Shown here one piece after another: positions 4,677 through 62,024 of a DNA stretch of 64,000 nucleotides (within the stretch, counting starts at the first letter, position 1; each line of letters starts with the position of its first letter). Location of the stretch: IMG/VR virus record IMGVR_UViG_3300028800_000057, one strand, 5' to 3'. The notes under the pieces were generated by a model, which had not been told where the DNA came from, ran no database searches, and saw nothing but the letters and a program-made list of their open reading frames with translations. The DNA comes from a virus. Lineage: Duplodnaviria; Heunggongvirae; Uroviricota; Caudoviricetes. The translations under genes and the position numbers were made by a program.

Positions 4677-4976
4677 CTACCCAGTCTGCTTGCGCTCAAA
4701 CATATTCCAGCTCGGGTCCTGCTCCGAGAGCGCGCGACAGCGCATGGTGGCGGCCAGCATATCAGGGATGGTGCGTGCCATCAAGGAGTCTTTCATTTCC
4801 TCTGGTAGCCCCTGGTACAGGGTGACGATCGATCTTGCCTCAGTTGAATTGACCAAGTAGCCCCTGACATGGGTAGCCTGCCTCAGCGCGACAGCTTCAA
4901 ACTCAACAATGATTTCAGCGTGGTCAGCCTTCGGTGGTAGAATGAATGTCCCTGATATAAAGTCCTTAGCTTCCAT
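4677..4976 (-). CDS. hypothetical protein
   Basis: ORF in minus block. Confidence 0.4.
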   Translation of the reverse strand: MEAKDFISGTFILPPKADHAEIIVEFEAVALRQATHVRGYLVNSTEARSIVTLYQGLPEEMKDSLMARTIPDMLAATMRCRALSEQDPSWNMFERKQTG

Positions 4977-8073: not shown

Positions 8074-8736
8074 TTGTATATGGCTGCAGAGGGCTATTTA
8101 GTTTCAATAAGCCCTAAGTTTTTGGTTGAGAACCACCATGCCTCGCACGTAATATCAAGTGTAAAGAGGTGGGACGTGACTACCAAGATTTTCTCCAGCC
8201 TGATTAGACTTGACAGCTCCACAGCCAAGAACAACTGCCATGAGGTGATGGCTACCCTGCACATCAACTTCTACCGGCAAGAGGCTCATACTAGAACCCT
8301 GACGGTTGATCTAAGGGCCGTCGAAGCGGAGTCTGAGTTCGTCAAGGTCCGTTTCTCGGGTTCGGTCAATCAGCGAGATCGCTCGGTGACTGGGCAGTGC
8401 ACGGATGAGATTCTGCGTTACTGGGGACACATCCCTGAGGTAGCTGAACTCTGTCGGCTCTGGGAGCGCTGGACTAGTAACGACAATAGGCTTGGAACCC
8501 GAGACCAGAATGCCGCTCTCGAAGGTGTGAGTGAGGTTGGTTTTGATGACTACGAGAAGTGGGTCAAGACCTACCTAATCGATGTGGGTCTCTACTGTGA
8601 CCACGGTTACATCTGGGGTTCTGACACTCTCATCGAAATCATACCTTCAGAGATCCTGTCGAAAATTGAGCAGGTGGTCGAGAGACTCAAGACTCTTATG
8701 CCAACCTTTGAGATGAAGGAATGCGTAAATGCCTGA
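8074..8736 (+). CDS. hypothetical protein, paralog of 10785..11336 (WGHIPEVAELCRLWERW motif)
   Basis: shared 17-aa near-identical motif with minus-strand paralog. Confidence 0.55.
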   Translation: MYMAAEGYLVSISPKFLVENHHASHVISSVKRWDVTTKIFSSLIRLDSSTAKNNCHEVMATLHINFYRQEAHTRTLTVDLRAVEAESEFVKVRFSGSVNQRDRSVTGQCTDEILRYWGHIPEVAELCRLWERWTSNDNRLGTRDQNAALEGVSEVGFDDYEKWVKTYLIDVGLYCDHGYIWGSDTLIEIIPSEILSKIEQVVERLKTLMPTFEMKECVNA

Positions 8737-24393: not shown

Positions 24394-24413
24394 TTTTGGT
24401 GTAGTCAAAACTA

Positions 24414-40525: not shown

Positions 40526-41173
40526 TCACCCACCAATGGTGGGATCAACAACTATTGTGTACACATCAAGAGCTTCGTTGTATTCGAAGGTTAGAATTGG
40601 AGTGCCTTTGGCAATAGGCTTGTCCGACCTGCATTGGATTTGGTAGCGGTCCCCACTCCTATTCGTGATTTGAGCTACCCCACCAGTACTGTCACAAGCT
40701 AGGGTGACAGTTCCAATACACCCAATGAGGTCTACCTTCTTCACTGAATCGGTTTCAGTGGTGGGCATGAACTTACCCACGGTTCGACTCACGAAGGCAG
40801 TACCAAAGAACATCGTGATGGAGGCAACGGCTACTGAGATAAGAGCGAACCCACTCCACACCTTGATGAGTGCTCCGAGTATCGTGTTCATGCAGATCCC
40901 AGTACCTGCAAATATCAAGGACAGAGACATGAATGAGATGGCAAGTGGTACCCTCCCAAACCCTAGGAAGCCAAGTAACCAACTCCCCTGTCCCTCCCCA
41001 TCCTGATCCCCTTCAGCGTCATGATCCCCGTCTAGGTGAAAGTCACCGTGGATGTCCCCATGAACCCCTACGTCGTGACCAGCACCTGAAAACCCGACTC
41101 CAAGTACGGATAGTATTCCGATTGCCAGCGGGATGTAGAAGATCAGATTATACCACTTGAAAAAGTCAGACAT
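40526..41173 (-). CDS. NfeD-like membrane protein (YqiJ-like) with His-rich segment and C-terminal OB-fold
   Basis: TM segments, GHDVGVHGDIHGDFH, C-terminal PIAKGTPILTFEYNEALDVYTIV. Confidence 0.6.
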   Translation of the reverse strand: MSDFFKWYNLIFYIPLAIGILSVLGVGFSGAGHDVGVHGDIHGDFHLDGDHDAEGDQDGEGQGSWLLGFLGFGRVPLAISFMSLSLIFAGTGICMNTILGALIKVWSGFALISVAVASITMFFGTAFVSRTVGKFMPTTETDSVKKVDLIGCIGTVTLACDSTGGVAQITNRSGDRYQIQCRSDKPIAKGTPILTFEYNEALDVYTIVVDPTIGG

Positions 41174-41194
41174 TTACGGCTATTACACCGGTCG

Positions 41195-44756: not shown

Positions 44757-45142
44757 AGAGGCTTGGGCCCAGCGCTTCAGACCTTACCTTGCTCCAGATC
44801 TTGGATCAAGAGAGGAATCTTTTCTCCTTGGCTAGCAAGGAGATCATGCATTTCCTTGTCGACGAGCTAATTCGTCGAAAGGTCTACCCGGAGGATACGC
44901 CTGAAGGTAACCCGAACTCCGTGTTCACTATGGTCGAGGGCTGGGGCGCCTACTGGCATGTCTGGAAGGGGACCTTGGAGTGCCCTCACTGCAAAGCTGA
45001 CCTACGAGATCACAAGATGGGTCCTCCTGGTCTCAGGCAAATTGGAGTAGTAGACAGGGGCTTGGACAAGATCACCCACTGGGTTTGCCCTGATTGCAAG
45101 GGGACGTGGGGTCGTGAGTTCACGCTAACGAAACAGGGATAG
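44693..45142 (+). CDS. hypothetical zinc-binding protein
   Basis: CPHCK...CPDCKG. Confidence 0.4.
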   Translation: MGNNARPIKGDDRKETTIETLKRLGPSASDLTLLQILDQERNLFSLASKEIMHFLVDELIRRKVYPEDTPEGNPNSVFTMVEGWGAYWHVWKGTLECPHCKADLRDHKMGPPGLRQIGVVDRGLDKITHWVCPDCKGTWGREFTLTKQG

Positions 45143-45578
45143 TGTACACGGTCTTCCCGGCTTTTCTTGCGTAGGTGATGGCTTGCCCAGTACCTGACTT
45201 GAAGTTGCCGTTGAAGAACGCTACTACAAAGGTCCCTCGGTCCACTAGGTACTCATTCCGCTTCTTGTAGCTCAAGTAGTGATCGTCCTCAGTAATTGGT
45301 TCCTGAAGTTCGATGACCAAGTCTGCGCGTCGAGTCCAGTTCCTAGTCGAGAGGGGTTGTCTATCGACGGTGTCCGGAACCACTACGATGAGTTTAGGCC
45401 TGATACCTTCTCGGTAGTGAAGGGCTGCCTTGAGAAATTCTGTGTCCACCCCACTTGCACCACCAAGGTAGACTTCGTCAATACTTAGGTTCATAAGCAA
45501 GGTAGCGGCTGCAGTCCACACCCGTTTCGTACTCTTGGGGCCAATAGTACGGTGACCCGTGATAGCAGCCGATTTCAT
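45120..45578 (-). CDS. YpsA-like SLOG-family (DUF1273) nucleotide-binding protein
   Basis: ITGHR, GGASGVDTEF, VVVPDTV, YKKRNEYLVDRGT, FFNG..GTGQAITYARKAGKTVY parallel YpsA motifs. Confidence 0.65.
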   Translation of the reverse strand: MKSAAITGHRTIGPKSTKRVWTAAATLLMNLSIDEVYLGGASGVDTEFLKAALHYREGIRPKLIVVVPDTVDRQPLSTRNWTRRADLVIELQEPITEDDHYLSYKKRNEYLVDRGTFVVAFFNGNFKSGTGQAITYARKAGKTVYTIPVSLA

Positions 45579-46075
45579 AGGTCGTAGATGAAGACTGGAA
45601 GATCACCCATTGTCTCTTGGATCAGAGGTTCTACCTGATCCCACTTTCCACCAGCGAGTCCACACCCAATCCTCGGGGCGTGAATAGTGGAGCCCTTCGA
45701 GCGAGCGCTCTCTGCTACCTTGGTCAAGCAAGTTCGAAGTGCATCGTATCGAAGCGGTGATGGACCTGGGTCCTCTTCAACCGCGTGCTGTAGACTTCCA
45801 GCCCTCCCATAACCAACCTGGGCAATCATGTTGGCGACCCAGAGACCAGGACCGACCAAAGCCCAGCCAACATTACCGAGGGCGAAGTCACCAGATCTAG
45901 TGTTGTGCCCTTCCTTGTACCACTTCCGGTACTGCCCTTCCGGTTCGGTCCAGCGCTTGGATAACGCCAACACGAAGCCCTTTCCCCAACCGCCCCTATC
46001 ATTGCAAATATGCATAATGATTCTAGATTCACTCGGTTGTGGACGAGTAGCGTCACCCTGCAAGTAAGTGATCAA
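45575..46075 (-). CDS. macro-domain protein (ADP-ribose binding/hydrolase fold)
   Basis: GDAT...IIMHICNDRGGWGKG resembles macro GD..D..AIVNAAN..L..GGGV. Confidence 0.55.
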   Translation of the reverse strand: MITYLQGDATRPQPSESRIIMHICNDRGGWGKGFVLALSKRWTEPEGQYRKWYKEGHNTRSGDFALGNVGWALVGPGLWVANMIAQVGYGRAGSLQHAVEEDPGPSPLRYDALRTCLTKVAESARSKGSTIHAPRIGCGLAGGKWDQVEPLIQETMGDLPVFIYDL

Positions 46076-46159: not shown

Positions 46160-46591
46160 CTATTTTTTCTCTGGGTGGCATAAGTTACGAATGACTCTCT
46201 CGTGTCGGGTGGGGACGCACTCGCGAGGGGACCCAGTCTTACTCTTCAGGTGTGGCATCTCTCGGAGCAGCTGGTCAAGTACTTCTTGGTGGCCTGCCTC
46301 GGCCTTCTCCCATGTCGAATAACGCCACTGGGCCTGATCCATAGTTCCTCCGAATACCATGGTCTCAAATAGGAGTGGCTCGGCTCCGTCCATCCAGCGG
46401 TGATTGATGCCCATGAGGAAAGTAGTTGATACAAGGATCTCCTCGGTCCCAGAAAGATACTCATCCTTTCGTACTCTTCGAACTCCATGATCAGGATCTT
46501 GTACAATCCACTCAAGGCATTCGATAGAGCTGACGGGGACCGCCGTCTTTCCCTCGAGTTTGAAGAAACGACACATCGAGGGAAGATACAC
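46160..46591 (-). CDS. hypothetical protein with C-terminal TRHERVIRNL tail
   Basis: ORF; tail family. Confidence 0.45.
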   Translation of the reverse strand: MYLPSMCRFFKLEGKTAVPVSSIECLEWIVQDPDHGVRRVRKDEYLSGTEEILVSTTFLMGINHRWMDGAEPLLFETMVFGGTMDQAQWRYSTWEKAEAGHQEVLDQLLREMPHLKSKTGSPRECVPTRHERVIRNLCHPEKK

Positions 46592-46721
46592 CGTTGACAG
46601 AACTAGGACAACTGATTATCCTGGGTGGCATGTCGAAGTATACGTAGATTTCTTCAGCTCGCGGCCCGCCGCCTCATGTTCGTTTTTCAAATAACTTTGA
46701 AACGACTAGGAGGTTAGTGCG

Positions 46722-47659: not shown

Positions 47660-47815
47660 TCTTCGTGCTTGGCTGTGATCTCAGGCTTACCCAAGCACGA
47701 ATCACACACGTGTACTCCGGTTCGACTCGCTTCAATCACGCTCGGATGAAGTGGGTCGAACCAGGAGGCCCAATGACACTTCGAGCATTCAAGTTCAACG
47801 GTCCCTCTCGGACGG

Positions 47816-48160
47816 ATGTTGTCTTCCATGGAAACTACTACCCCGCAGAAACTTTACCTTGTAACTCGTGAGGATCTATCACCTGCTCAACAAGCTGTCC
47901 AGGCTGCACATGCCCTGACTGAGTACCTAATGCAGCATAAAGAAGGTGCTTTGAGTTGGCACTCAAGCTCAAATACCCTGGCTTTACTGTCAGTTCCGAC
48001 TGAGGAGAGTTTGAGCGCCTTGGCCCACAAAGCTAGACGTAAAGGGTTTATGATCTCGGAGTTTAGAGAGCCAGACAGACTTGACGAATTGACTGCGGTG
48101 GCCTTCGAACCGAAAGCCAAACCACTTTTGCGTAACATTCAATTGGCTCTTAGGCTATAG
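47816..48160 (+). CDS. PTH2-like (peptidyl-tRNA hydrolase type 2 fold) protein
   Basis: KLYLVTREDLSPAQQAVQAAHA resembles Pth2 K.v.VVR.DL.M.KGK.AAQ..HA. Confidence 0.4.
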   Translation: MLSSMETTTPQKLYLVTREDLSPAQQAVQAAHALTEYLMQHKEGALSWHSSSNTLALLSVPTEESLSALAHKARRKGFMISEFREPDRLDELTAVAFEPKAKPLLRNIQLALRL

Positions 48161-48358
48161 TTGAGTATGACGGTGACCAATTGCAAACAGAGTCTCTACT
48201 TCCCTGTGGATATGTACCACGAGGTTCGTGAGGAGGCTGTACGCCTTGATCGATCCGTCTCGTGGGTTGTCGTTCAAGCCTGGAGGATAGCGAGATCAAA
48301 GATCAAGAATCTTCCCGGTGTAACTGATCCACCTGATAGTGATACCAAGCTTCCGTAG
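48161..48358 (+). CDS. hypothetical small protein; its stop codon lies inside the tRNA 5' arm
   Basis: ORF. Confidence 0.3.
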   Translation: MSMTVTNCKQSLYFPVDMYHEVREEAVRLDRSVSWVVVQAWRIARSKIKNLPGVTDPPDSDTKLP

Positions 48359-48420
48359 CTCAGCGGTAGAGCAGTGAATTCTAACCTCATTGGTCGTGGG
48401 TTCGAACCCCTCCGGAAGCG
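48349..48420 (+). tRNA. tRNA-like cloverleaf with anticodon CUA (amber-suppressor type); 7-bp acceptor, D-arm GCTC/GAGC, T-loop TTCGAAC; one mismatch each in anticodon and T stems
   Basis: manual fold: loop TT-CTA-AC with U33 and A37. Confidence 0.55.
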
Positions 48421-48421
48421 C

Positions 48422-49342
48422 TCAGAGTTTCCACATGACCGTTGTATTTGGGCCTACCCCAATATGGTTATCTAAGTTGTGCAGGTGATCCATTCTCTCC
48501 AGTGAGAGCTTGAACTTCTTAGGGATAGCTTCGAACCCATAGTAGGAGCCGGCCATTGCTCCGGCGATAGCAGCTGTCGTGTCTGTGTCCCCACCCGCTC
48601 TGATGGCGGCCATGACAGCATCCTCGTATGAATCAGTGAGCATGAAGGCGGCTGCCGCTGAGGGTACCGTTTGGGTTACATGAGACTTGGTTCCAAAGAC
48701 ACTGAATGCCTCCGGTAGGGAAAGTCGGTCTTTGGTCTTTCCGAGTATGATGAGCTTGTCTTTGATCTTGGAGTTGCTCAGAAAATCCAAGGTAGCTTCA
48801 ATAAGATCAAACTTTGGTACCCCCTGCCAGATGAAAGCAACCATCAAGGCAACTGCTGCTGAACCCTCTCGAGCTTCCACTGACTTATGGGTGATCCTAG
48901 ACTCCATCCTTGCAAACTCGGATACCGTCAGCGGATCATCATGGTAAAATGCTCCCATGGGGGCCGCCCGCATTGCGGTACCATTGCCTTCGGCGCCATC
49001 AATCCCACTATCTGTCCAGCGAAAACCCTCCTTCAAGCGTTGAAGTGAGGCTTTGGTGGTCTTACCCATCCCCCGAGTATCCCCGGCGATGTACCAGTGG
49101 AGATACCGGTTGGCGACATCGCGCGGGTAAAAACCCCCACAGATGTACAGGGATTCTGTAAGCATCTTCGCCATCATAGTATCATCAGTCCATTGGCCAG
49201 GGGTGAGCTGATGATACTCACTTGGCAAGTAGTCTCCCCTCCAACTTAGGAGCATAGGATCGCTCGCAAGCCGTGTTTCGAAGGGCATTCCAAGAGCATC
49301 TGCCACAGCCTCACCTACTAGAGGTGCCGGATCACTAACCAT
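48422..49342 (-). CDS. ADP-ribosylglycohydrolase (ARH/DraG family)
   Basis: VADALGMPFE ... QWTDDTMM ... GGDTDTTAAIAGA. Confidence 0.8.
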   Translation of the reverse strand: MVSDPAPLVGEAVADALGMPFETRLASDPMLLSWRGDYLPSEYHQLTPGQWTDDTMMAKMLTESLYICGGFYPRDVANRYLHWYIAGDTRGMGKTTKASLQRLKEGFRWTDSGIDGAEGNGTAMRAAPMGAFYHDDPLTVSEFARMESRITHKSVEAREGSAAVALMVAFIWQGVPKFDLIEATLDFLSNSKIKDKLIILGKTKDRLSLPEAFSVFGTKSHVTQTVPSAAAAFMLTDSYEDAVMAAIRAGGDTDTTAAIAGAMAGSYYGFEAIPKKFKLSLERMDHLHNLDNHIGVGPNTTVMWKL

Positions 49343-49348
49343 GTATTG

Positions 49349-49425
49349 TCACTACACCAAGGGGACATGAAGTCCCCTCAGAGACTTCATGTCGATTTCA
49401 CTTGAAGATTAAAACTAGCTGGTGT
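49349..49425. ncRNA. candidate structured RNA between divergent ARH and Ro60 genes: 11-bp hairpin GACATGAAGTC/GACTTCATGTC enclosed by outer pairing CTACACCA/TGGTGTAG
   Basis: direct inspection of nested complementarity; function inferred from Ro60 adjacency. Confidence 0.3.
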
Positions 49426-49480
49426 AGATAGGTGAGTTCCTCATATCGAGGGGCAACTTGTCCAGTCCGTTAGGACTGGA

Positions 49481-51118
49481 ATGCTAGAAATGGAGGCCAC
49501 CGTGGCCAAGAATAATATCGTCGGTTTGAACCCGAATGCGAGCAATTATGCTGGTGGGGATGCGTATGCTATGGCGCCGGAGAATGCCCTGGCACAACTA
49601 GCTGTAACTGGTTGTTTTAACAGTACCTTCTATACAACTGCTGAGTCACAGGCAGAGCAGGTTCTCGACCTAGTCGGGAAGTCTGATCCTGAGTTCGTGG
49701 CTAAGCTAGCGGTTTATGCCCATACGACTGGGTACATGAAGGACATGCCGGCGGCCCTCCTGGCCAACTTAGCTGTTCGTAACCCTGAGCTCTGCGTGAA
49801 GGTCTTCCCGCGCGTAGTCAGCAACGGTAAGATGTTGCGCAACTTTGCTCAGATCATTCGGTCTGGGAAGTTTGGTAAGAGGAACGCTTCCTCGCACCGG
49901 CTGCGAAAGGTCATTGCCCAGTGGTTCGACTCTAGGACTGACGACCAAATATTCTTCAACTCGGTCGGTAACAACCCGACCTTGGGTGACGTGGTGAAGG
50001 TGGCTCGGGTGCGCCCGACGTCTAGGACCAGGTCTGCTCTCTATGCTCACCTGGCGGGCAAGGATAAGGGTTTCTTCGACGGTGAGGACTTCGTTACGGC
50101 TGAGTCTCTCCCGGCGCTAGTAGCGGCTTATGAAGCCTTCCGGGTGTCCCCGGTGGGTGAGGTTCCTAATGCACCCTTCGAGATGCTATTGGGACTTAAG
50201 TTGAGTCTTGATGATTGGAAGGCGGTAGCCGCCAAGGCAACTTGGCCTCAGACCTTCAAGAATCTCAATACGTTCGCTCGTCACGGAGTTCTTGCGGACC
50301 CTGAGATGGTCAACTTGATTGCAGCCAAACTACATAACAAGGATCTGATCGAAAAGGCTCACGTCTTTCCATACCAGATCATGATGACCTACAAGGCGGT
50401 TACGGATCGGAGCATCACCTTCCGTGGTTCAAAGCCCAATGATGACGACTTTGAACAGATGCCGAACAAGATCATTGTAGCTCTTGAGGAAGCTCTTGAA
50501 CTAGCTACAATGAACGTTCCTGCCTTCGATGGGCAGAACGTAGTCATCTGTGTCGACGTGTCTGGGTCGATGTCCACAAGCCCTGTAACTGGTTCTCGAA
50601 AGGGTTCCACTACAAAGGTCATGAGCATCGATGTGGGTTCGTTGATTGGTTCGTCCATCCTCAGAAGGAACCCGCGGGCTAGACTCATCGCCTTCGAGGG
50701 TCGAGTAGTCCCGGTCAAGGTGCATGCTGGCAACAGTGTCATGCAGAATACCAAGATCTTAGCCTCCGTTGGTGGTGGTTCAACTGATTGTGCTAAACCT
50801 TTGGCTTTGCTCAATGCAGAGGCCGCCAAGGTTGACGTGGTCATCTTCGTCTCGGATTACGAGTCTTGGACTGGTAATCATGGGATCACAGGGGCGACTC
50901 AAATGCAAGGGCAATGGGACTTACTGAAGTGTAGGAACCCCAATGCCAAGTTGGTCTGCTTGGATCTCGCACCTCACAACACGAATCAGGTTGTAAGCCG
51001 ATCTGATACTTTTGGTATCGGTGGGTTCTCTGATCAGGTTTTCAGCATGATCAGTGATTTTGTCACTGGTTCCGGCAAGAACCAGTGGGTAGACATCATC
51101 AATCAAGTTGAACTCTGA
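49481..51118 (+). CDS. Ro60/Rsr-like TROVE-domain protein with C-terminal vWA (MIDAS DVSGSM)
   Basis: NYAGGDAYAM..LAQLAVTGCFNSTFYT ... KVFPRVVSNGKMLRNF TROVE-like; VVICVDVSGSMS vWA. Confidence 0.7.
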   Translation: MLEMEATVAKNNIVGLNPNASNYAGGDAYAMAPENALAQLAVTGCFNSTFYTTAESQAEQVLDLVGKSDPEFVAKLAVYAHTTGYMKDMPAALLANLAVRNPELCVKVFPRVVSNGKMLRNFAQIIRSGKFGKRNASSHRLRKVIAQWFDSRTDDQIFFNSVGNNPTLGDVVKVARVRPTSRTRSALYAHLAGKDKGFFDGEDFVTAESLPALVAAYEAFRVSPVGEVPNAPFEMLLGLKLSLDDWKAVAAKATWPQTFKNLNTFARHGVLADPEMVNLIAAKLHNKDLIEKAHVFPYQIMMTYKAVTDRSITFRGSKPNDDDFEQMPNKIIVALEEALELATMNVPAFDGQNVVICVDVSGSMSTSPVTGSRKGSTTKVMSIDVGSLIGSSILRRNPRARLIAFEGRVVPVKVHAGNSVMQNTKILASVGGGSTDCAKPLALLNAEAAKVDVVIFVSDYESWTGNHGITGATQMQGQWDLLKCRNPNAKLVCLDLAPHNTNQVVSRSDTFGIGGFSDQVFSMISDFVTGSGKNQWVDIINQVEL

Positions 51119-51140
51119 GTAACCAAGTATAGTTAGTTGA

Positions 51141-51707
51141 TTGCAAAGGGCACTGCGGATTTACTTCTGCGGTGTCCTTTGTGTAATGTCCTTCACCCCA
51201 GAGACCTTGATCGGCAGTTTGATTACTGCCGTCTTATCCGGTGGCGGTACCGCGTTCACTACTGTCTTCGCTCTTTTCAAGGACATTCGAAAGAAGGTCG
51301 AGGAACTTGAGAAGAAGGTTGGTTCTTTTGAATCTAAAACCGGACTTGCTTACGCAATAGTCAGGCTAGAGGAGACCATCAAGGATGTCAAACGAGACAC
51401 TGAGGAGACAACCGACGCTCGTAGGCGTCGCCCGTCCTTCCTCAGCTTTGATGATATGCTTGAGGCTGATACGACAGCCCTACCTTCCCTAATCCATCGT
51501 ATTAAGAACTTTGAAGTCAAGGTGAGGGAGATTGAAGAGAGCCTTCAACGACTTGACATGAGGGTCAAGCGCATGGTTATGGAGGAGGAATTCGAAGCTG
51601 CTGATCGTAAGCGTGCCGAGGAAATAGCGGGAGTTAGAACTACTGTGTTTGAGGTCAAAGGGCTCCTCCAAGGCTTGCACATGGCATTAGGCCTCACTAA
51701 GAGATAA
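51141..51707 (+). CDS. membrane-anchored coiled-coil protein
   Basis: N-terminal TM, helical remainder. Confidence 0.45.
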   Translation: MQRALRIYFCGVLCVMSFTPETLIGSLITAVLSGGGTAFTTVFALFKDIRKKVEELEKKVGSFESKTGLAYAIVRLEETIKDVKRDTEETTDARRRRPSFLSFDDMLEADTTALPSLIHRIKNFEVKVREIEESLQRLDMRVKRMVMEEEFEAADRKRAEEIAGVRTTVFEVKGLLQGLHMALGLTKR

Positions 51708-51709
51708 CC

Positions 51710-51955
51710 ATGGATCGGCCCCACCCAAAGATCTTCAGGCACCAGTCTGGGCTCATGCAATCAGTCAAGGCTGAGTTGGATGGGGTTCTTGAGGCTACGA
51801 TAGCCGTGGTGGAAAAGGTTAAGAGTGACCCACCTCCAAAGGAGTCACTGCATCCCGTTGATCCTGGTCTCTACAAGTTGACTTCAGCGGATAGTGGAGA
51901 GCACCCAGGATTGATTGAGACAGTTGTAATCCCGAACAAGAGGAAGAAGACCTAA
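51710..51955 (+). CDS. hypothetical small protein
   Basis: ORF. Confidence 0.35.
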   Translation: MDRPHPKIFRHQSGLMQSVKAELDGVLEATIAVVEKVKSDPPPKESLHPVDPGLYKLTSADSGEHPGLIETVVIPNKRKKT

Positions 51956-51958
51956 GTA

Positions 51959-53797
51959 CTATCGAAGTGGGCCATCCCCTGCAAGACCGCTCGGGATACC
52001 TGCCACACTAATGGTAGCATCCACTGTCCCTGAGGAGATCAGGATGCGCGAGATATTGTTGCTACCCTTGTTGTTCACATACATGTGGTCCGCACCGTCC
52101 CAGGCAACCTCGTCTGGAGTTGTCCCGACACTGATAGTTGAGTCAACTGTCCCTGAAGAGATCTCTATGAGTGATACAGTTCCGTCACCGGAATTAGTGA
52201 CATACATGTGGTCCGCCCCATCCCACGCTATTTTATTCGGGCTACTCCCTACGAAGATCATAGCATCGACATTGTTACTCGTCAGACTGATTCGGATTAC
52301 TTGATTGGATAACGAGCTAACCACATACATGTGGTCCGCACCGTCCCAAGCAACTCCCTTAAAGTCGTTTAATAGAGGGATAGTCAGGTTGACTGTTGCG
52401 GTTGTAGTGTCCACGCTAGACACTGTTCCATCGCTACTATTGACCGCAAACATGTGGGACACACCGTCCCAAGCGATAGCACGAGGGGAGTTCCCAAGTG
52501 TAATTGCGGATCCAAGTAGAGCGCCTGTTGCGATCTGGATCCTATGAGCAGTGTTCCCACCACGACCAACAACATACATGTATGAGCCACCATCCCATTC
52601 AATTCCGAATGGGTTAGTTTCAGCACTGCTTATGGTAGTAGTACTCAGATCTGCTATTGCTATCCTGGTAACTGTGTTGTCGTTCTGACTAGCGACATAC
52701 ATGTAGAGTCCACCGTCCCATGCAATATCAACCGGTTCACTACCAACACTAATGAGATCACTTACTACTCCAGAAGAGATTAGAATCCTCCTAGCTACGT
52801 TTGTACTATCCATGGATACGTACATGTAGAGGCCGCCATCCCAAGCAACCCCAGTTGGAAATCCTGACCCCAGGGAGATGGTCGCATCGACAGCTCCGCT
52901 CGAGATCAGGATTCTAGATACAGTGTTGGTGCCATTGTTAGTGACATACATGTGGGCCCCTCCGTCCCACGCAACCCTATATGGATTAGAACCAACAGGG
53001 ATGATCAGATCAACAACTCCTGTTGAGATCAGGATCCTGTAGACTGAACCATCCTGGTCCACTGTGTACATGTGGGCCCCACCATCCCACGCGATATCAA
53101 TTGGAGATATCCCAACAGGGATGACTAAGTCAATAACTCCAGTAGAAGCAATGATTCTAGAGACCGTCCCTTGCCCAAAGTTTGCTGTGTAGATGTGACC
53201 AGACCCGTCTCGTGCAACGCCCCATGAATTAGGGGCATTCATCAGATGTACTGACGAATAACTAGGCCAAGTATCTACTGATACTTCCAGAATCTTGTTC
53301 GTGTTTGGGTTAGTATTGTTGGCAGTTACCCACATATTGAAGCTGCCATCCCAAGCCACCTTGTTGGGAACACCGTCACTACTACTGAAGTTGATGTTAG
53401 AGTCTACAACCCCCGAGACAATTGCAATTCGAGTAATCGTGTTTTCATTGTCAACCACGTACACGAAGCTAGTATCCCTAGCTAGCGCAATCGGTTGAGA
53501 TCCAATGTTAGTAGTACTATCTAGTGCAAGACTGGATATCCTAACTCTTTGAACTGAATCCCCATCAACCTCAGCCAAGTACATATAGGATCCACCATCC
53601 CATACTATCGCTTGGGGGTTGTCACCAGCGGTAACGGTGCTGTCAATAGCCCCGGTAGCTATGTTGACGCGCGGTACTAGATTTGCTGAGCCAAGAGGGA
53701 CCCACATGTGCCCCCCAATAAGTGGGCGCTTGCCTAAGGCCCACTCGGGGGCTCGTGCAATGGTTCTCATTAGAGTGCCCTCACGTACTCGAACCAA
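51959..53797 (-). CDS. YVTN/NHL-type beta-propeller repeat protein (about 14 x AWDG..HMYV repeats), likely receptor-binding/tail-associated
   Basis: regular about 40-aa repeats. Confidence 0.6.
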   Translation of the reverse strand: MVRVREGTLMRTIARAPEWALGKRPLIGGHMWVPLGSANLVPRVNIATGAIDSTVTAGDNPQAIVWDGGSYMYLAEVDGDSVQRVRISSLALDSTTNIGSQPIALARDTSFVYVVDNENTITRIAIVSGVVDSNINFSSSDGVPNKVAWDGSFNMWVTANNTNPNTNKILEVSVDTWPSYSSVHLMNAPNSWGVARDGSGHIYTANFGQGTVSRIIASTGVIDLVIPVGISPIDIAWDGGAHMYTVDQDGSVYRILISTGVVDLIIPVGSNPYRVAWDGGAHMYVTNNGTNTVSRILISSGAVDATISLGSGFPTGVAWDGGLYMYVSMDSTNVARRILISSGVVSDLISVGSEPVDIAWDGGLYMYVASQNDNTVTRIAIADLSTTTISSAETNPFGIEWDGGSYMYVVGRGGNTAHRIQIATGALLGSAITLGNSPRAIAWDGVSHMFAVNSSDGTVSSVDTTTATVNLTIPLLNDFKGVAWDGADHMYVVSSLSNQVIRISLTSNNVDAMIFVGSSPNKIAWDGADHMYVTNSGDGTVSLIEISSGTVDSTISVGTTPDEVAWDGADHMYVNNKGSNNISRILISSGTVDATISVAGIPSGLAGDGPLR

Positions 53798-56134: not shown

Positions 56135-56727
56135 TTGTCACCAAACTGTTCGTAAGCACGTGACGCTACCGCGCCTTTGGCATTATCACCTTGATAATGC
56201 CCCTTGTAAAGATCAACTTCACCACGAATGGTGAAAAATCGTATTTGACAGATTCTCATCCCTGGGTATAACCTGATAGGATAGGTGGCTAGTACTTCGA
56301 GTGTGTACTGACCATAGAAACCAGGGTCCCCGAGACCGGCGGTTACATGAACCAGCACAAATAGCCGTCCTATGCTTGACTTACCGTCAATTGCTGGGAC
56401 ATACTTGTTGGTTCCGACACTCTCTCTAGTGTGCATCAGGTATCCGATGCCAGGTTTGAGTATGAACCCCTCAGGACCCATCTTGAAGGAGTTCGTTGGG
56501 TTGTCCACCTTGGGGTCCAAGTAACTACCGCTCTTCCAGACCTTATTGTACACTGTGATTCCATCGCCAAGTGTGAGGTCATAGGAGGCTGGGTTTAATT
56601 GAGAAACCTCGAACGGACTTATGTCGATCTCACCGAGATGAGTCTCCATTTCAATCTCTTTCCCCGACAGAATACCTTGTTGCATAGGATTCAAGTACAC
56701 CGATTTAATGGGGTGTGTAACCGGCAT
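56131..56727 (-). CDS. dcd: dCTP deaminase
   Basis: IDGKSSIGRLFVLVHVTAGLGDPGF..TLEV...P..L.PGMRICQI. Confidence 0.8.
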   Translation of the reverse strand: MPVTHPIKSVYLNPMQQGILSGKEIEMETHLGEIDISPFEVSQLNPASYDLTLGDGITVYNKVWKSGSYLDPKVDNPTNSFKMGPEGFILKPGIGYLMHTRESVGTNKYVPAIDGKSSIGRLFVLVHVTAGLGDPGFYGQYTLEVLATYPIRLYPGMRICQIRFFTIRGEVDLYKGHYQGDNAKGAVASRAYEQFGDK

Positions 56728-58758: not shown

Positions 58759-59889
58759 TTGACCTTAAAAAGGGAAACTGTGGCTAATTTAGTAGGAAAT
58801 TTACCTGATGATTTCATACCCTCAAACTTTACTGTGTTATATGACACCTACTCACCATTTGTTACGAGGTTAGTCACACGGTACAATCGTGTTCAAGCTA
58901 ATTTCGAGGACCTTCTCCAGCACGTATGGATGAAGTTGGTCGAAGTTGACGTCATTCAGAAGTACAATGACTCAAGCTCCCTCCCTAAGAAGATGACCGC
59001 GCTCGAAGCGTGTGCTTATCTAGATATAGAGTGGGGATCACTGAAGCGCGCCGTTCACCGTCACCTTATTGGTGAGGATCGCCATCTCGACCGCATTCGA
59101 AGTGTGTCAAAAGACACTAAGGGCAAACTCCTTCGACGGGATCACGGCACCTGCCACTGTTGCGGTAGGAACATGGTTGAGTTTGGCAAGGCTTTCAACC
59201 GGTACAAGAGTGATCCGTTGAGGACTAACTGGTTCAAGAGAATGCTGGCATCGCTTGGCCTGACCTCGAAGCAGAAGACCTTCTGGTACGCCGTGAAGGA
59301 CCCTAGCGTTGCCTTCCGAAGGGGTATGGATGAAGCCGACCGGTACAAGACCACTTGCTTCATCTGCTTGCGCCAGATCAGTCCTCCAGTGGTACGTTCC
59401 AAGTCTGAGTGGGCCCCAGTACCCATTGAGGGTACGTGGGCTTCAAAGAAGGCGCTTTACTCTCGAGAGGATATTGAACGGTTCCGGTTGGAGCGGGAAG
59501 CTAGAGGCAAGCGTAATAACAAGGCCATCTGTCCTAGGAAGATCAAGTCAAAACCGTTCTTCAAACTGTATCTTGCTCGCGCGGTTCACAACATCTACGC
59601 CAACTGGTGTCGGACTCGGTCTCGACGGTACAAGGAGCACTTCCCAGGGACAGACCCTGAGACGGGTCGGTCATGGGAAGACACCCTCGTGTCAAACACC
59701 TCGACTCAAGACACACTGTCCGAGTTGCATGAGGCTGTAAAGATCCTTGTGGATAACAACTCGGATGTGATGACGAAAACCCACGAAGACGTCATCATCT
59801 TGCTAGCGAAGGGGTGCTCCCCTGAAGAGATTGTTGTGCGTCTTGGGCTGCCCAAACGTGGACTCAAGACCCTCTCACTCGGGACTTGA
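58759..59889 (+). CDS. sigma-factor-like protein (region 2- and region 4-like segments with inserted Cys-rich segment)
   Basis: FEDLLQHVWMKLVE (region 2-like); DVIILLAKGCSPEEIVVRLGL (region 4 HTH-like). Confidence 0.5.
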   Translation: MTLKRETVANLVGNLPDDFIPSNFTVLYDTYSPFVTRLVTRYNRVQANFEDLLQHVWMKLVEVDVIQKYNDSSSLPKKMTALEACAYLDIEWGSLKRAVHRHLIGEDRHLDRIRSVSKDTKGKLLRRDHGTCHCCGRNMVEFGKAFNRYKSDPLRTNWFKRMLASLGLTSKQKTFWYAVKDPSVAFRRGMDEADRYKTTCFICLRQISPPVVRSKSEWAPVPIEGTWASKKALYSREDIERFRLEREARGKRNNKAICPRKIKSKPFFKLYLARAVHNIYANWCRTRSRRYKEHFPGTDPETGRSWEDTLVSNTSTQDTLSELHEAVKILVDNNSDVMTKTHEDVIILLAKGCSPEEIVVRLGLPKRGLKTLSLGT

Positions 59890-60680
59890 GAATCCTCTTG
59901 TTCAGGGGGTCTGATGTGACAGCTCGAACTCGTCTCATCAAAGCCTCCCTAGAACTCAAGCGCCTAGTATTCAGCTCGTTGCCTTGGGGCCTTCGAGTTG
60001 CGCACTTGCTCCACCAGATCCGGTTCGCGTCCGACGCCTCCGTCTTTGGTCAATCCATCTACGGGTTATTTCTCCTCTACGGAGTTGAGGGGATGCCCAC
60101 CCCACCTATGGTACCTAAAAGTATCAAGGATATCAACAGATTGCACGGGTATGGTCGAGATTTCGGCCAAAAGGCGTTAGGCCTTGCCCTTCGATTGTTC
60201 AAATCCGACTCGATGAAGGTCGAGCGGTCTCAAGAGACTCTATCTCTTGTATTCATGAAGCTTTTCTCTGACTCAACCCTAGAGAGTAAATTCAAGGGGA
60301 AGCCACTCGCCTACGCTGAGAATTATGCATACTTAGCTGTAAGGAGTGAGGCAGTCAGTTTGATGCGTAAAGAAAGGCTACGCGCCCACAGTGACATTGA
60401 AGATCTCGTCACCGAGCCAGCTTCATGGGATAGCCTAGGCGACATGATCCCGAGGGCTGAGCAAGAAGCTCTACTGAAGGAGCTAGAGCGCGCTGTCAAC
60501 CCGGAGACGTTCCCTGATATCGTGGAGTACTTCCAGCTCCTGCTAGAAGGTCACAATACAGAGGAGATTGCGCGGGAGAGGTTACTTCCTAGCCTACAAG
60601 ACAAGGCAATGACCCAGCAAGGGTTGAGGCGGTATGAAGGGGTGATCAAGAGGGTTCTTGAGCGCCACTTTGGTGTATAG
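59886..60680 (+). CDS. second sigma-factor-like protein
   Basis: ETLSLVFMKLF...ENYAYLAVRSEAVSLMRKER; FPDIVEYFQLLLEGHNTEEIARE. Confidence 0.45.
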   Translation: MRILLFRGSDVTARTRLIKASLELKRLVFSSLPWGLRVAHLLHQIRFASDASVFGQSIYGLFLLYGVEGMPTPPMVPKSIKDINRLHGYGRDFGQKALGLALRLFKSDSMKVERSQETLSLVFMKLFSDSTLESKFKGKPLAYAENYAYLAVRSEAVSLMRKERLRAHSDIEDLVTEPASWDSLGDMIPRAEQEALLKELERAVNPETFPDIVEYFQLLLEGHNTEEIARERLLPSLQDKAMTQQGLRRYEGVIKRVLERHFGV

Positions 60681-60686
60681 CCGGAC

Positions 60687-62024
60687 GTGACTCAACCTGT
60701 AGACGTCATCCTCCACGGTCAGTGTTTGGATGTTCTCCGTACTTACCCAGACAACTTCTTTGATAGTGTCGTAACAGATCCGCCTTACGGGCTCGGTGGG
60801 CGTGACCCAACGCCGGAAGAGATCTTAGCTTACCTGAATGGGGCGGTCCTTGTAACAGGGGAGTTCATGAACAAGGATTGGGACTTACCCTCAGTCCTGG
60901 TCTGGAAGGAATGCCTTAGGGTCGTCAAGCCCGGTGGGTTCTTGTTCTCGTTCGCCGGGACTCGGACGATTGACATCCTCTCAATTGGAATCCGGATCGC
61001 TGGGTTCACGAATCGTGACACTATCCCGGTTGAGATGGGGCCGCCAATCCTTCGGTGGCTTCGTGCTCAAGGGATGCCCAAGAATGTTGATGTCGGTAAG
61101 GAGTTCAAGAAGGCGGGCCTCCTCGACCTAGCGGTTCTATGGAAAGAGTTCGGAACGGCTCTTAAACCTTACTGGGAACCAATACTCGTCTTCCGCAAAC
61201 CTATTGCTGAACAGACCCTGCTCAAGCAGCTTGAAGTCACTGGGACTGGGGTCATCAACATCGAGGCTTCTAGGGTCAAGCACTCATCCCTAGCAGACTT
61301 CGCCAAGCACAAGGCGGGGGTAGACGCCATCAAGGCGCGCGGGGGCAAGATGGGTAACTCGTGGAAGAACTCTTCTGACCTGTCTGGAGCCAATGATGTC
61401 TCGACTTCGGGTCGACTCCCTCCGAACGTCATCTTCGTTCATTCGGACTTATGCCGGAAGGTTGGTAGTCAGGTAGTGGCTATGCCGCCCATCAATCGCT
61501 TTGATGATGGAGCTAAGCCATTTGGTGGCGGTGCCGGTCACAAGTACACAACAGTCCATCGAGAGGATGAGACCATTGATACTTGGGAGTGTCACCCCTC
61601 GTGTCCGATCTACCATCTCAATCAACAGCACAAGGTTGAGGCTGGTGGGGCTTCGAAGTACTTCCTGAATGTTGACCCTGATTCCCTATTCTTCTACGTC
61701 CCCAAACCCAATCTCCGAGAGAAGAGTGCCGGGCTTGAGGAGGGGGAAGAGAACGAGCACAATACGGTCAAACCTGTACGGCTCATGGAGTACTTGGTAA
61801 CTATGGCGACCCCTACCAACGGGACTGTCCTAGACCTTTATTGTGGATCAGGTACGACTTGCGTAGCTGCTATTAATAAGGGATTCCACTTCGTAGGCAT
61901 CGAGAAGGAAGAGCCATCGGTCAAGACCGCTCGGTTGAGAGTCCTGGCTGCTCAAGCGGATCGTCGGGAGTTTGAGGACCGAGAGGTAATGGCTGGGGCA
62001 ATGTATGAGCTTGAATCAGAGTGA
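60687..62024 (+). CDS. DNA methyltransferase (N6A/N4C beta-class, canonical DPPY), C-terminal YELESE
   Basis: FDSVVTDPPYGLGG ... DLYCGSGTT. Confidence 0.85.
   Translation: MTQPVDVILHGQCLDVLRTYPDNFFDSVVTDPPYGLGGRDPTPEEILAYLNGAVLVTGEFMNKDWDLPSVLVWKECLRVVKPGGFLFSFAGTRTIDILSIGIRIAGFTNRDTIPVEMGPPILRWLRAQGMPKNVDVGKEFKKAGLLDLAVLWKEFGTALKPYWEPILVFRKPIAEQTLLKQLEVTGTGVINIEASRVKHSSLADFAKHKAGVDAIKARGGKMGNSWKNSSDLSGANDVSTSGRLPPNVIFVHSDLCRKVGSQVVAMPPINRFDDGAKPFGGGAGHKYTTVHREDETIDTWECHPSCPIYHLNQQHKVEAGGASKYFLNVDPDSLFFYVPKPNLREKSAGLEEGEENEHNTVKPVRLMEYLVTMATPTNGTVLDLYCGSGTTCVAAINKGFHFVGIEKEEPSVKTARLRVLAAQADRREFEDREVMAGAMYELESE

Follow-up and report, generated by a model that had tools for sequence, protein, structure and literature searches.

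The conservation of Ro60 and Y RNAs extends from bacteria to humans; in lupus and Sjögren syndrome, Ro60 is a major autoantigen. The phage locus described here may bear on the minimal RNA feature read by Ro60 and on the control of its level. In the bacterial systems, Ro60 (Rsr) is partnered by YrlA and YrlB RNAs (Chen et al. 2014, PMC4201824; Rfam RF02553), and YrlA-type Y RNAs mimic tRNA with a circularly permuted arm order and no anticodon arm (PMC4201824). In the Thermus phage phiLo, small hairpin Y-like RNAs (Yrl1 and Yrl2) upstream of the Ro60 gene bind the protein in vitro, and a minimal stem-bulge-stem suffices (PMC12135203). We analysed a stretch of 64,000 nucleotides from a tailed phage (Caudoviricetes; IMG/VR record IMGVR_UViG_3300028800_000057), hereafter the window, which carries a Ro60/Rsr-like gene together with an upstream cloverleaf and a structured intergenic region. 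The original prediction held that either the cloverleaf (48349-48420) or a nested-hairpin region (49349-49425) could be the RNA partner of the Ro60-like protein. Comparison with related phage loci points instead to a conserved hairpin in the putative leader of the Ro60 mRNA (49455-49484), here called H3, as a better candidate for a Ro60-binding RNA than either of these.

The Ro60-like open reading frame (ORF) was recognised correctly as a protein with a TROVE ring and a vWA domain. At its C-terminal end it matches Pfam vWA_Ro60 (PF25045, 6.6e-16, residues 354-528) and, in the N-terminal HEAT-repeat ring, partially TROVE (1.7e-06), and Deinococcus radiodurans Rsr (2NVO) aligns with residues 14-469, nearly the whole length, at E 1.3e-14, with DVSGSMT of Rsr facing DVSGSMS of the query at the MIDAS motif (DxSxS). 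Further structural matches include vertebrate Ro60 (1YVP) and the phiLo Ro60 (9KOP), the latter alignable over only about 80 N-terminal residues. Homologues are plentiful (6614 at E<=1e-10, with PF05731 and PF25045 in most). Since its 75.9 bits against the bacterial Rsr equivalog model of NCBIfam (NF041674) fall far under the cut-off of 900, the protein is a divergent family member and not an Rsr equivalog. An identical protein is present on a 443-kb contig and proteins of 49-90% identity occur on contigs of 100-512 kb, those with close homologues measuring 200-512 kb. The clade so defined (at least 49% identity) was found only on phage-like contigs, with no member among 185,579 species-representative genomes, where the best cellular relatives are 43-47% identical. 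The window belongs to a very large phage, and its other functions, which are typical of phages, include a sigma-like protein, DNA methylases, a P22-type antirepressor domain and UDG. Fifteen distinct clade loci were retrieved for comparison (single loci are denoted by L and a number), and the leader hairpins were tabulated for 16 loci.

The mechanically called Ro60 ORF spans 49481-51118(+) and opens at an ATG that is in frame with Ro60 in only some relatives. A Shine-Dalgarno sequence, GGAGG (49492-49496), precedes a GTG at 49502, which is most likely the true start. By analogy with the motif spacing of putatively leaderless genes elsewhere in the window, transcription of Ro60 would begin near 49437 and give a leader of about 65 nt. 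This leader is predicted to fold well (49436-49520, z -3.5) into two hairpins, H2 and H3, that appear in both the minimum free energy and the centroid structure. H2 is kept in near relatives mostly via G-U and A-U changes, and distant relatives have other G+C-rich hairpins in its place. H3 proper (49461-49480) ends 11 nt before the Shine-Dalgarno sequence and 21 nt before the Ro60 start codon. It is present in 16/16 loci with 113/113 canonical pairs, and these loci show 12 different stems and 9 different loops, UUCG occurring several times. Both the UUCG loops and the G-U pairs point to the plus strand as the RNA strand. UUG before the hairpin and AUG after it are invariant in all 16 loci, the 3' flank reading AUGC in five and AUGG in ten of them, and in distant clade members, L131 and L153 among them, the closed module occurs twice in tandem, each copy set between YUUG and AUGC.

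A covariance model built from eight leader hairpins (R1) found one site in the window, and among the loci it found only the Ro60 leader of clade members, with the exception of L153. No significant match came from the other phage Ro60 loci (50), from bacterial loci (80) or from the phage Mx1. The conservation of H3 and its specificity for the Ro60 leader are thus firm. The stems of distant relatives were tabulated by hand and with the covariance model, as MAFFT misaligned their leader hairpins. Three further observations concern similar elements. In L153 an unexplained R1 match of 25 bits (8516-8549) falls on the plus strand, at a distance from the Ro60 leader, where a gene is called on the minus strand. 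In L133 (2301-2325) the closed module caacuug-UCCCU-agg-AGGGA-aug, likewise unexplained and distant from the Ro60 leader, stands directly before a small ORF (R1 18 bits, E 0.11); canonical Y RNAs are present in this phage as well. Myxococcus phage Mx1, which is in culture (L155, OR576727.2) has a TROVE gene 41% identical to that of the window, located among tRNAs and a peptidyl-tRNA hydrolase gene, and before it, at 4760-4792, the arrangement cuuug-UCUC-uucg-GAGA-auacc-AUG (cuuugUCUCuucgGAGAauacc), a 4-bp hairpin with similar flanks that could be due to chance.

The leader hairpin gains interest from what the clade lacks. The expectation of Y RNAs beside Ro60 genes was reasonable, as canonical ones lie within about 3.5 kb of the gene in 86% of the other loci. 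A covariance search nevertheless gave no YrlA or Y_RNA match in the window, with a threshold of E<=10 for 47800-51800 and of E<=5 for its whole length, and the clade loci had no match at the gathering score; the positive control L028 scored 69.1 and 68.8 bits. This negative is not decisive by itself, given that the simple Y RNAs of L120, L133, L144 and L151 were also missed, so a sequence signature of the Y RNA 5' part, [GA]AUGC-N4-9-G[GA]-N0-2-UACA, was derived from non-clade Ro60 loci. Over 207 such loci the count is 693 for the Ro60 strand against six for the reverse strand, with at least one copy in 177 loci. The window has none on either strand, and the 15 clade loci have a single isolated match (L019) that is probably due to chance. 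The absence of a canonical Y RNA near Ro60 in this clade is thus a firm result. A T-loop pattern search for hidden permuted tRNA-like modules found only the tRNA itself convincing, and "open" Y modules (5' strand-ATG … TTG-3' strand) are at chance level in the window (five forward, five reverse), with none near Ro60. Closed modules seen in L084, L095, L104 and L115 were rejected on inspection as junctions between tandem Y RNAs. As a separate observation, many non-clade loci contain arrays of two to seven simple Y RNAs (basal helix, AUGC, second helix, UACA) that have no tRNA-like domain and score below the YrlA gathering threshold (L120, L133:3110-3300, L144, L151, L095:3270-3450, L021, L022, L026); a dedicated model for them would be useful.

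Much of the border of H3 is shared with the Ro60-binding helix of known Y RNAs. The Rfam YrlA consensus (RF02553) runs …CgaAUGCu on the 5' side and …AcUuGucGccg on the 3' side, so that CUUG and AUGC border its basal helix, each on its own strand, and the helix ends in U-A and C-G pairs. The H3 junction, AACUUG/UC…GA/AUGC, has the same borders and the same closing pairs, and among 630 real Y modules, too, CUUG precedes the 3' strand more often than any other flank. As in the YrlA/YrlB systems, the protein has a TROVE ring and vWA/MIDAS, and an RNA element is found no more than 100 nt from Ro60 on the same strand, well inside the 4 kb or so allowed for a Y RNA gene. It differs from them in being closed by a tetraloop, in lacking a second helix, a UACA box, a tRNA-like T/D module and CGAA, and in being embedded in the Ro60 mRNA leader. 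The phiLo system is similar in having one- or two-hairpin elements directly upstream of a phage Ro60 gene, but its Yrls have CGAA within an internal bulge and count as small RNAs of their own, while the element here has GGAAUG or a weaker sequence and sits 11 nt before the ribosome-binding site.

These likenesses suggest a mechanism in which H3 with its flanks would represent the junction at which a Y RNA is bound by Ro60, here with a tetraloop at its far end and placed inside the mRNA. Ro60 would bind it on its own message beside the ribosome-binding site, and bound Ro60 would reduce translation of this message or direct it to decay, so that the leader would act as a cis-acting Y RNA. Autogenous translational operators are well known from phage T4 RegA and gp32 and from ribosomal-protein operons with mimics of rRNA sites. 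The mechanism proposed here would follow that logic, in that a protein reads a mimic of its ligand in its own leader by the ribosome-binding site, with the difference that for Ro60 it is deduced from sequence alone. A literature search found no description of Ro60 autoregulation. That Ro60 binds H3 in its own leader is a possibility to which we give somewhat less than an even chance, and the evolutionary corollary, that this giant-phage clade dropped free Y RNAs and kept the Ro60-binding junction as an mRNA-leader hairpin, in some members as two tandem copies, is a tentative proposal that we would sooner doubt than assert.

Several points weigh against this interpretation. The likeness to Y RNAs rests on flanks of about 10-13 nt that were spotted post hoc, and the stems of distant relatives are partly defined by those flanks themselves. 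The GNCGAAN0-1G (CGAA) motif is absent: the window reads CUGGAAUG at this position, other clade members have GGAAUG, GGACAUG, GGGCAUG or CCGCAUG, and the distant ones GAC/AUG or GGC/AUG. By comparison, the 5' strand of the 630 real Y modules ends in CGA in 57%, in UGA in 9% and in GGA in 1.7%. Ro60 is reported to contact mainly the CGAA strand, and in the phiLo system single changes in CGAA lower binding 3-4 fold (PMC12135203). A basal helix made from free 5' and 3' ends is likewise missing, as H3 is closed by GUUA, UUCG or similar loops and has no partner strands upstream or downstream. We infer all RNA ends from motif spacing, and the motif in question, GGTGTA, is unlike a sigma-70 promoter and has itself a putative promoter role. 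Canonical Y RNAs could also lie in the roughly 380 kb of genome beyond the window.

Other observations bear equally on the main alternative, namely that H2 and H3 are ordinary mRNA elements, protecting the 5' end from decay or serving as a spacer for ribosome access, with Ro60 not bound and the likeness of the flanks coincidental. A 5'-terminal hairpin pair could simply stabilise the mRNA, and H2 falls exactly at the putative 5' end. The AUGG form of the 3' flank, found in 10/16 loci, merges into the Shine-Dalgarno region, and part of its conservation could thus serve translation. TTG-hairpin-ATG arrangements are not rare as such (two found in the window against 1.3 expected), and the want of CGAA fits this alternative as well. 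In L017 (1084-1545) a cysteine-rich ORF, HNH-like by eye, separates Ro60 from H3 and follows GGAAUGC by a few nt. It resembles an inserted mobile endonuclease gene, downstream of which Ro60 has a new start and N-terminus, and the P0010 locus probably has such an insertion too, the ORF sizes being 153-170 aa. H3 therefore need not abut the Ro60 start, which argues against a strict need for its position at the ribosome-binding site and fits a leader with its own function and a generic stabiliser equally. What a mere stabiliser would not lead one to expect is that UUG and AUG stay constant while the stem between them changes completely. Nor does it readily explain why the window and the loci searched have the element in the Ro60 leader and nowhere else, why the module and its flanks are doubled in distant relatives, why these flanks are the modal junction of real Y RNAs, and why all this occurs in a clade without canonical Y RNAs. 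We regard the ordinary-leader explanation as quite possible without being probable.

Between a cis-acting element and a classical Y RNA stands a third option, in which the leader (49436 to about 49485) would be cut off or accumulate as a free mini Y RNA of about 50 nt and act in trans, perhaps as a tether for a host exonuclease, instead of regulating how much Ro60 is made. Salmonella Y RNAs are processed from the rsr-rtcBA operon transcript. That they are encoded within this operon beside its protein-coding genes (PMC4201824, PMC7790460) lends the option some plausibility, as does the leader remaining intact upstream of the inserted ORF in L017, and small hairpin Y-like RNAs do bind both a phage Ro60 and host polynucleotide phosphorylase (PMC12135203). 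However, no terminator or recognisable processing site follows H3, and no effector-like loop or second domain is conserved, which leaves a free mini Y RNA unlikely. Binding in cis to the leader hairpin is the reading that we carry forward.

The nested-hairpin region upstream of the leader had been put forward as a partner RNA in its own right. Its predicted fold is indeed strong in the window (z -3.6, and z -5.2 against shuffles for the whole intergenic region 49343-49480), but the inner hairpins are specific to the window and the conserved structured RNA lies elsewhere, at 49436-49484, almost wholly outside 49349-49425. Homologous stretches of six relatives have z from -0.1 to -3.3 and no common inner structure. 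The closing stem of the nested hairpin turns out to pair CACTACACC (49350-49358), the ARH copy of a recurrent motif, with its Ro60-facing copy GGTGTAG (49421-49427). The inner part includes an 11-bp stem (49364-49393), and a scan flags the spacer as terminator-like.

GGTGTA is among the most enriched intergenic 6-mers of the window (4.2-fold) and stands upstream of many genes in the right orientation. The arrangement GGTGTA-N10-ATG occurs nine times against 0.44 expected, a number reached in 0/100 shuffles, and we read GGTGTA as a putative phage-wide promoter-like motif. Its spacing implies many leaderless genes. One of the nine sites belongs to ARH, the ADP-ribosylglycohydrolase gene divergent from Ro60: here the motif stands exactly 10 nt before the ATG (49340-49358(-)), the spacing of a -10-like element, so that the ARH mRNA is probably leaderless. 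The Ro60-facing copy stands about 75 nt before the Ro60 start codon and leaves room for the leader. A second divergent gene pair has the same motif arrangement (57407/57445). Further examples of the motif are found at 24398(+), 27138(+), 31078(+), 41171-41189(-), 46574-46592(-) and 56683-56701(-), and it has no fixed -35 partner. The sigma-like protein encoded at 58759-59889 may read it, and the CATGTCGATTT-N-CTTGAA block that precedes the Ro60-facing copy may be a regulatory site. A scan of 49343-49501 for the sigma-70 consensus TTGACA-N16-18-TATAAT found none, and GGTGTA is a different signal that has not been described before; CTTGAA-N17-TAGATA was considered as a sigma-70 promoter and rejected, given this empty scan and the inconsistent spacing to TTGA-like hexamers at other GGTGTA sites.

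The nested hairpin would thus be the divergent promoter region of ARH and Ro60. The alternative, a stable small Y-like RNA whose ends form a CACUACACC/GGUGUAG stem, could appeal to the fold of the window, to an outer inverted repeat that is kept in most relatives and at times is two to three pairs longer, to an inner GUCGAU element similar to GNCGAA, and to other phages in which Y RNAs lie directly upstream of Ro60. Yet both arms of the stem are the motif found upstream of many genes at a fixed 10 nt from start codons, and a pyrimidine preference just before the motif explains the apparent stem extension. The interior is neither conserved nor consistently stable, L013 retains the right-hand block without the left arm, and in L015 the interior is only 5 nt long. 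Moreover, no promoter-like motif precedes the region on the plus strand, and the region lies upstream of the putative Ro60 transcription start. We give a Y-like RNA from this region very little credence and keep to divergent promoters.

The cloverleaf is more than the tRNA-like element first described: the 72-nt fold is there, and it is a complete tRNA with a stop-codon anticodon. ARAGORN finds it as the only tRNA in the window (48349-48421(+), anticodon CUA), and it scores 60.6 bits over the full Rfam tRNA model against a gathering score of 29. It has the conserved D- and T-loop nucleotides, two non-canonical pairs, A31-C39 and U50-U64, and a normal anticodon arm with the 7-nt loop UUCUAAC, U33, CUA and A37. 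In each of the 12 relatives for which enough upstream DNA is available, the syntenic site has a tRNA that decodes a stop codon, with CUA or UUA as its anticodon. CUA is found in the window, L002, L003, L009, L013 (two copies, 1467-1540 and 1799-1875) and L019, and the same UUCUAAC loop is seen by alignment in L011, where ARAGORN reads UCU in another register; UUA is found in L006, L007, L015, L099 and L131. Three of these (L002, L099 and L131) have class II bodies of 89-92 nt with long variable arms. Across relatives the discriminator base varies, acceptor stems have compensatory changes and CCA is encoded in several (other coordinates: L002:3851-3941; L006:3235-3307; L099:2346-2434; L131:569-660). 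Even among close relatives, the anticodon alternates between amber CUA and ochre-type UUA and the body between class I and class II. Since the stop anticodon is constant while class and discriminator vary, selection seems to act on decoding and not on a shape bound by Ro60.

These features speak against the cloverleaf as the partner of Ro60, that is, as a tRNA-like effector module of a Y RNA instead of a decoding tRNA. The idea draws on the tRNA mimicry of bacterial YrlA RNAs (PMC4201824), on the position of the tRNA within 1.1 kb of Ro60 on the same strand, and on its accompanying the Ro60 clade in every locus with enough upstream DNA. On the other hand, the cloverleaf is complete with a standard anticodon loop and has neither a Ro60-binding stem nor permuted arms, and it scores as a tRNA without any YrlA match. 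Where extra genes are inserted, the tRNA keeps the company of the peptidyl-tRNA hydrolase (PTH2) and ARH genes and not that of Ro60, and phage Ro60 genes are common in tRNA regions anyway, where the tRNAs beside them in other phages are ordinary sense tRNAs. A partnership of this kind is very improbable, and the cloverleaf is best described as a predicted suppressor tRNA gene of a working type and not a Y RNA. It belongs to a conserved translation-related block of PTH2, a small ORF and the tRNA, and appears to have its own promoter: an exact GGTGTA stands 26-45 nt upstream of 7/13 such tRNAs (window and five relatives), with near variants in two or three more.

A suppressor tRNA raises the question of stop-codon recoding, for which the window gave no signal, either in coding densities under four codes or in a list of long ORF pairs split by one stop. 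ORFs cover 84% of it under the standard code, TAG ends 24/90 ORFs, and reading through any stop adds little. Two long ORFs in one frame, 59886-60680 and 60687-62024, are separated by a single TAG (at 60678). Programmed read-through of this TAG by the suppressor tRNA was rejected, as it lies within a GGTGTA motif, GGTGTATAG, that is followed by a GTG at leaderless spacing; the simpler reading is two separate genes, the second a probable separately started methylase. The stop-recoded phages described by Borges et al. (bioRxiv 10.1101/2021.08.26.457843) similarly encode CUA or UUA tRNAs among translation-related genes. Unlike those phages, the window shows no recoding, with a density of 0.84 under the standard code and a G+C content of about 51%, which is not low, and within the clade the anticodon may be CUA or UUA and the tRNA of class I or class II. 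The published work also reports that recoding need not be complete and that suppressor tRNAs can occur in standard-code relatives of recoded phages (10.1101/2021.08.26.457843). In the present phage, late genes beyond the window may conceivably be recoded.

Taken as a whole, the explanation that combines a suppressor tRNA, divergent promoters, a Y-junction-like leader and Ro60 binding its own mRNA is one that we lean towards. Its closed Y-junction-like hairpin in a Ro60 leader, in a clade without canonical Y RNAs, is new, whereas phage Ro60 genes by tRNAs and phage suppressor tRNAs are known.

The order of genes around these elements (Table 1) is kept in the clade: PTH2, small ORF, tRNA, ARH on the opposite strand, Ro60, a hairpin and an ORF of about 173 aa. 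The ARH gene between cloverleaf and Ro60 was rightly identified, and PTH2 is syntenic with the tRNA in most relatives. The small ORF contains the promoter-like motif of the tRNA inside its 3' end, overlaps the tRNA by 10 nt and has counterparts of 60-65 aa next to the tRNA in relatives. Its product looks like a ribbon-helix-helix-like DNA-binding protein and might regulate the PTH2/tRNA block. The hairpin after Ro60 has a clear U-rich tail only in distant relatives, and its loop, GAUUUACUUC, is conserved in near relatives, so that it may be more than a terminator. The 173-aa gene behind it matches no Pfam or NCBIfam family.

Table 1. Features of the Ro60 locus, with positions in the window
Feature	Position	Strand	Basis or remark
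PTH2-type peptidyl-tRNA hydrolase gene	47816..48160	+	Pfam PF01981, 3.6e-08; in related loci
Small ORF, 65 aa, TIGR04563 family	48161..48358	+	NCBIfam 84.6 bits vs cut-off 65
GGTGTA promoter-like motif, 27 nt upstream of tRNA	48317..48322	+	
Amber-suppressor tRNA, anticodon CUA, class I, discriminator G73, no encoded CCA	48349..48420	+	ARAGORN; Rfam
ARH (DraG/Tri1-like) gene	48422..49342	-	Pfam PF03747, E 1.6e-66; NCBIfam Tri1 and DraG, partial matches
ARH promoter-like motif CACTACACC (GGTGTAGTG on minus strand)	49350..49358	-	Conserved block in alignment A9
Variable spacer, window-specific inner hairpins	49361..49388	.	Alignment A9; folds of relatives; not conserved
Conserved block CATGTCGATTT-N-CTTGAA, 14 variable nt, then TGGTGTAGAT; putative Ro60 promoter region	49388..49429	+	
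H2, GUUCCUC-AUAUC-GAGGGGC, at putative Ro60 mRNA 5' end	49436..49454	+	Fold; near relatives
H3 with flanks, AACUUG / UCCAGUCC-GUUA-GGACUGGA / AUGC	49455..49484	+	Candidate Ro60-binding site
Ro60/Rsr-like gene	49502..51118	+	TROVE ring and vWA, MIDAS DVSGSMS; start from relatives
Hairpin, 16 bp, in gap between Ro60 and next gene, terminator-like	51144..51181	+	Covarying stems in 12 relatives
173-aa gene, conserved, no family	51186..51707	+	166-174 aa gene there in most, not all, relatives

Genes for the reversal of ADP-ribosylation and for tRNA recycling are clustered beside Ro60, comprising a macro-domain ORF (weak DarG-like match), a DprA-like ORF, PTH2 and the DraG/Tri1-like ARH, with cluster sites at 45120-46075(-), 47816-48160(+) and 48422-49342(-). 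This cluster may be a counter-defence or RNA-repair neighbourhood. Further downstream, 51959-53797(-) encodes a 612-aa protein of many near-identical repeats of about 40 aa (…AWDG…YV…) that matches beta-propeller and virginiamycin-B-lyase-like families, and relatives have proteins of 600-930 aa in the same position.

Should the idea of Ro60 binding fail, the remainder would be ordinary, a phage Ro60 among tRNAs with a structured leader. The annotation of giant phages would gain in any case from the phage-wide GGTGTA motif with its putative leaderless genes and from a syntenic suppressor tRNA that is CUA in some relatives and UUA in others, in what looks like a standard-coded genome. If the idea holds, the leader would be the first described case of an autoregulatory operator of a Ro60, or else of a cis-acting Y RNA embedded in an mRNA, and it could show the minimal RNA determinant that Ro60 recognises, with the cultured Mx1 as a possible experimental handle. 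A natural lineage that has no canonical Y RNAs near Ro60 and carries a Y-junction-like hairpin by the ribosome-binding site would then offer a compact model for both Ro60 recognition and autogenous control.

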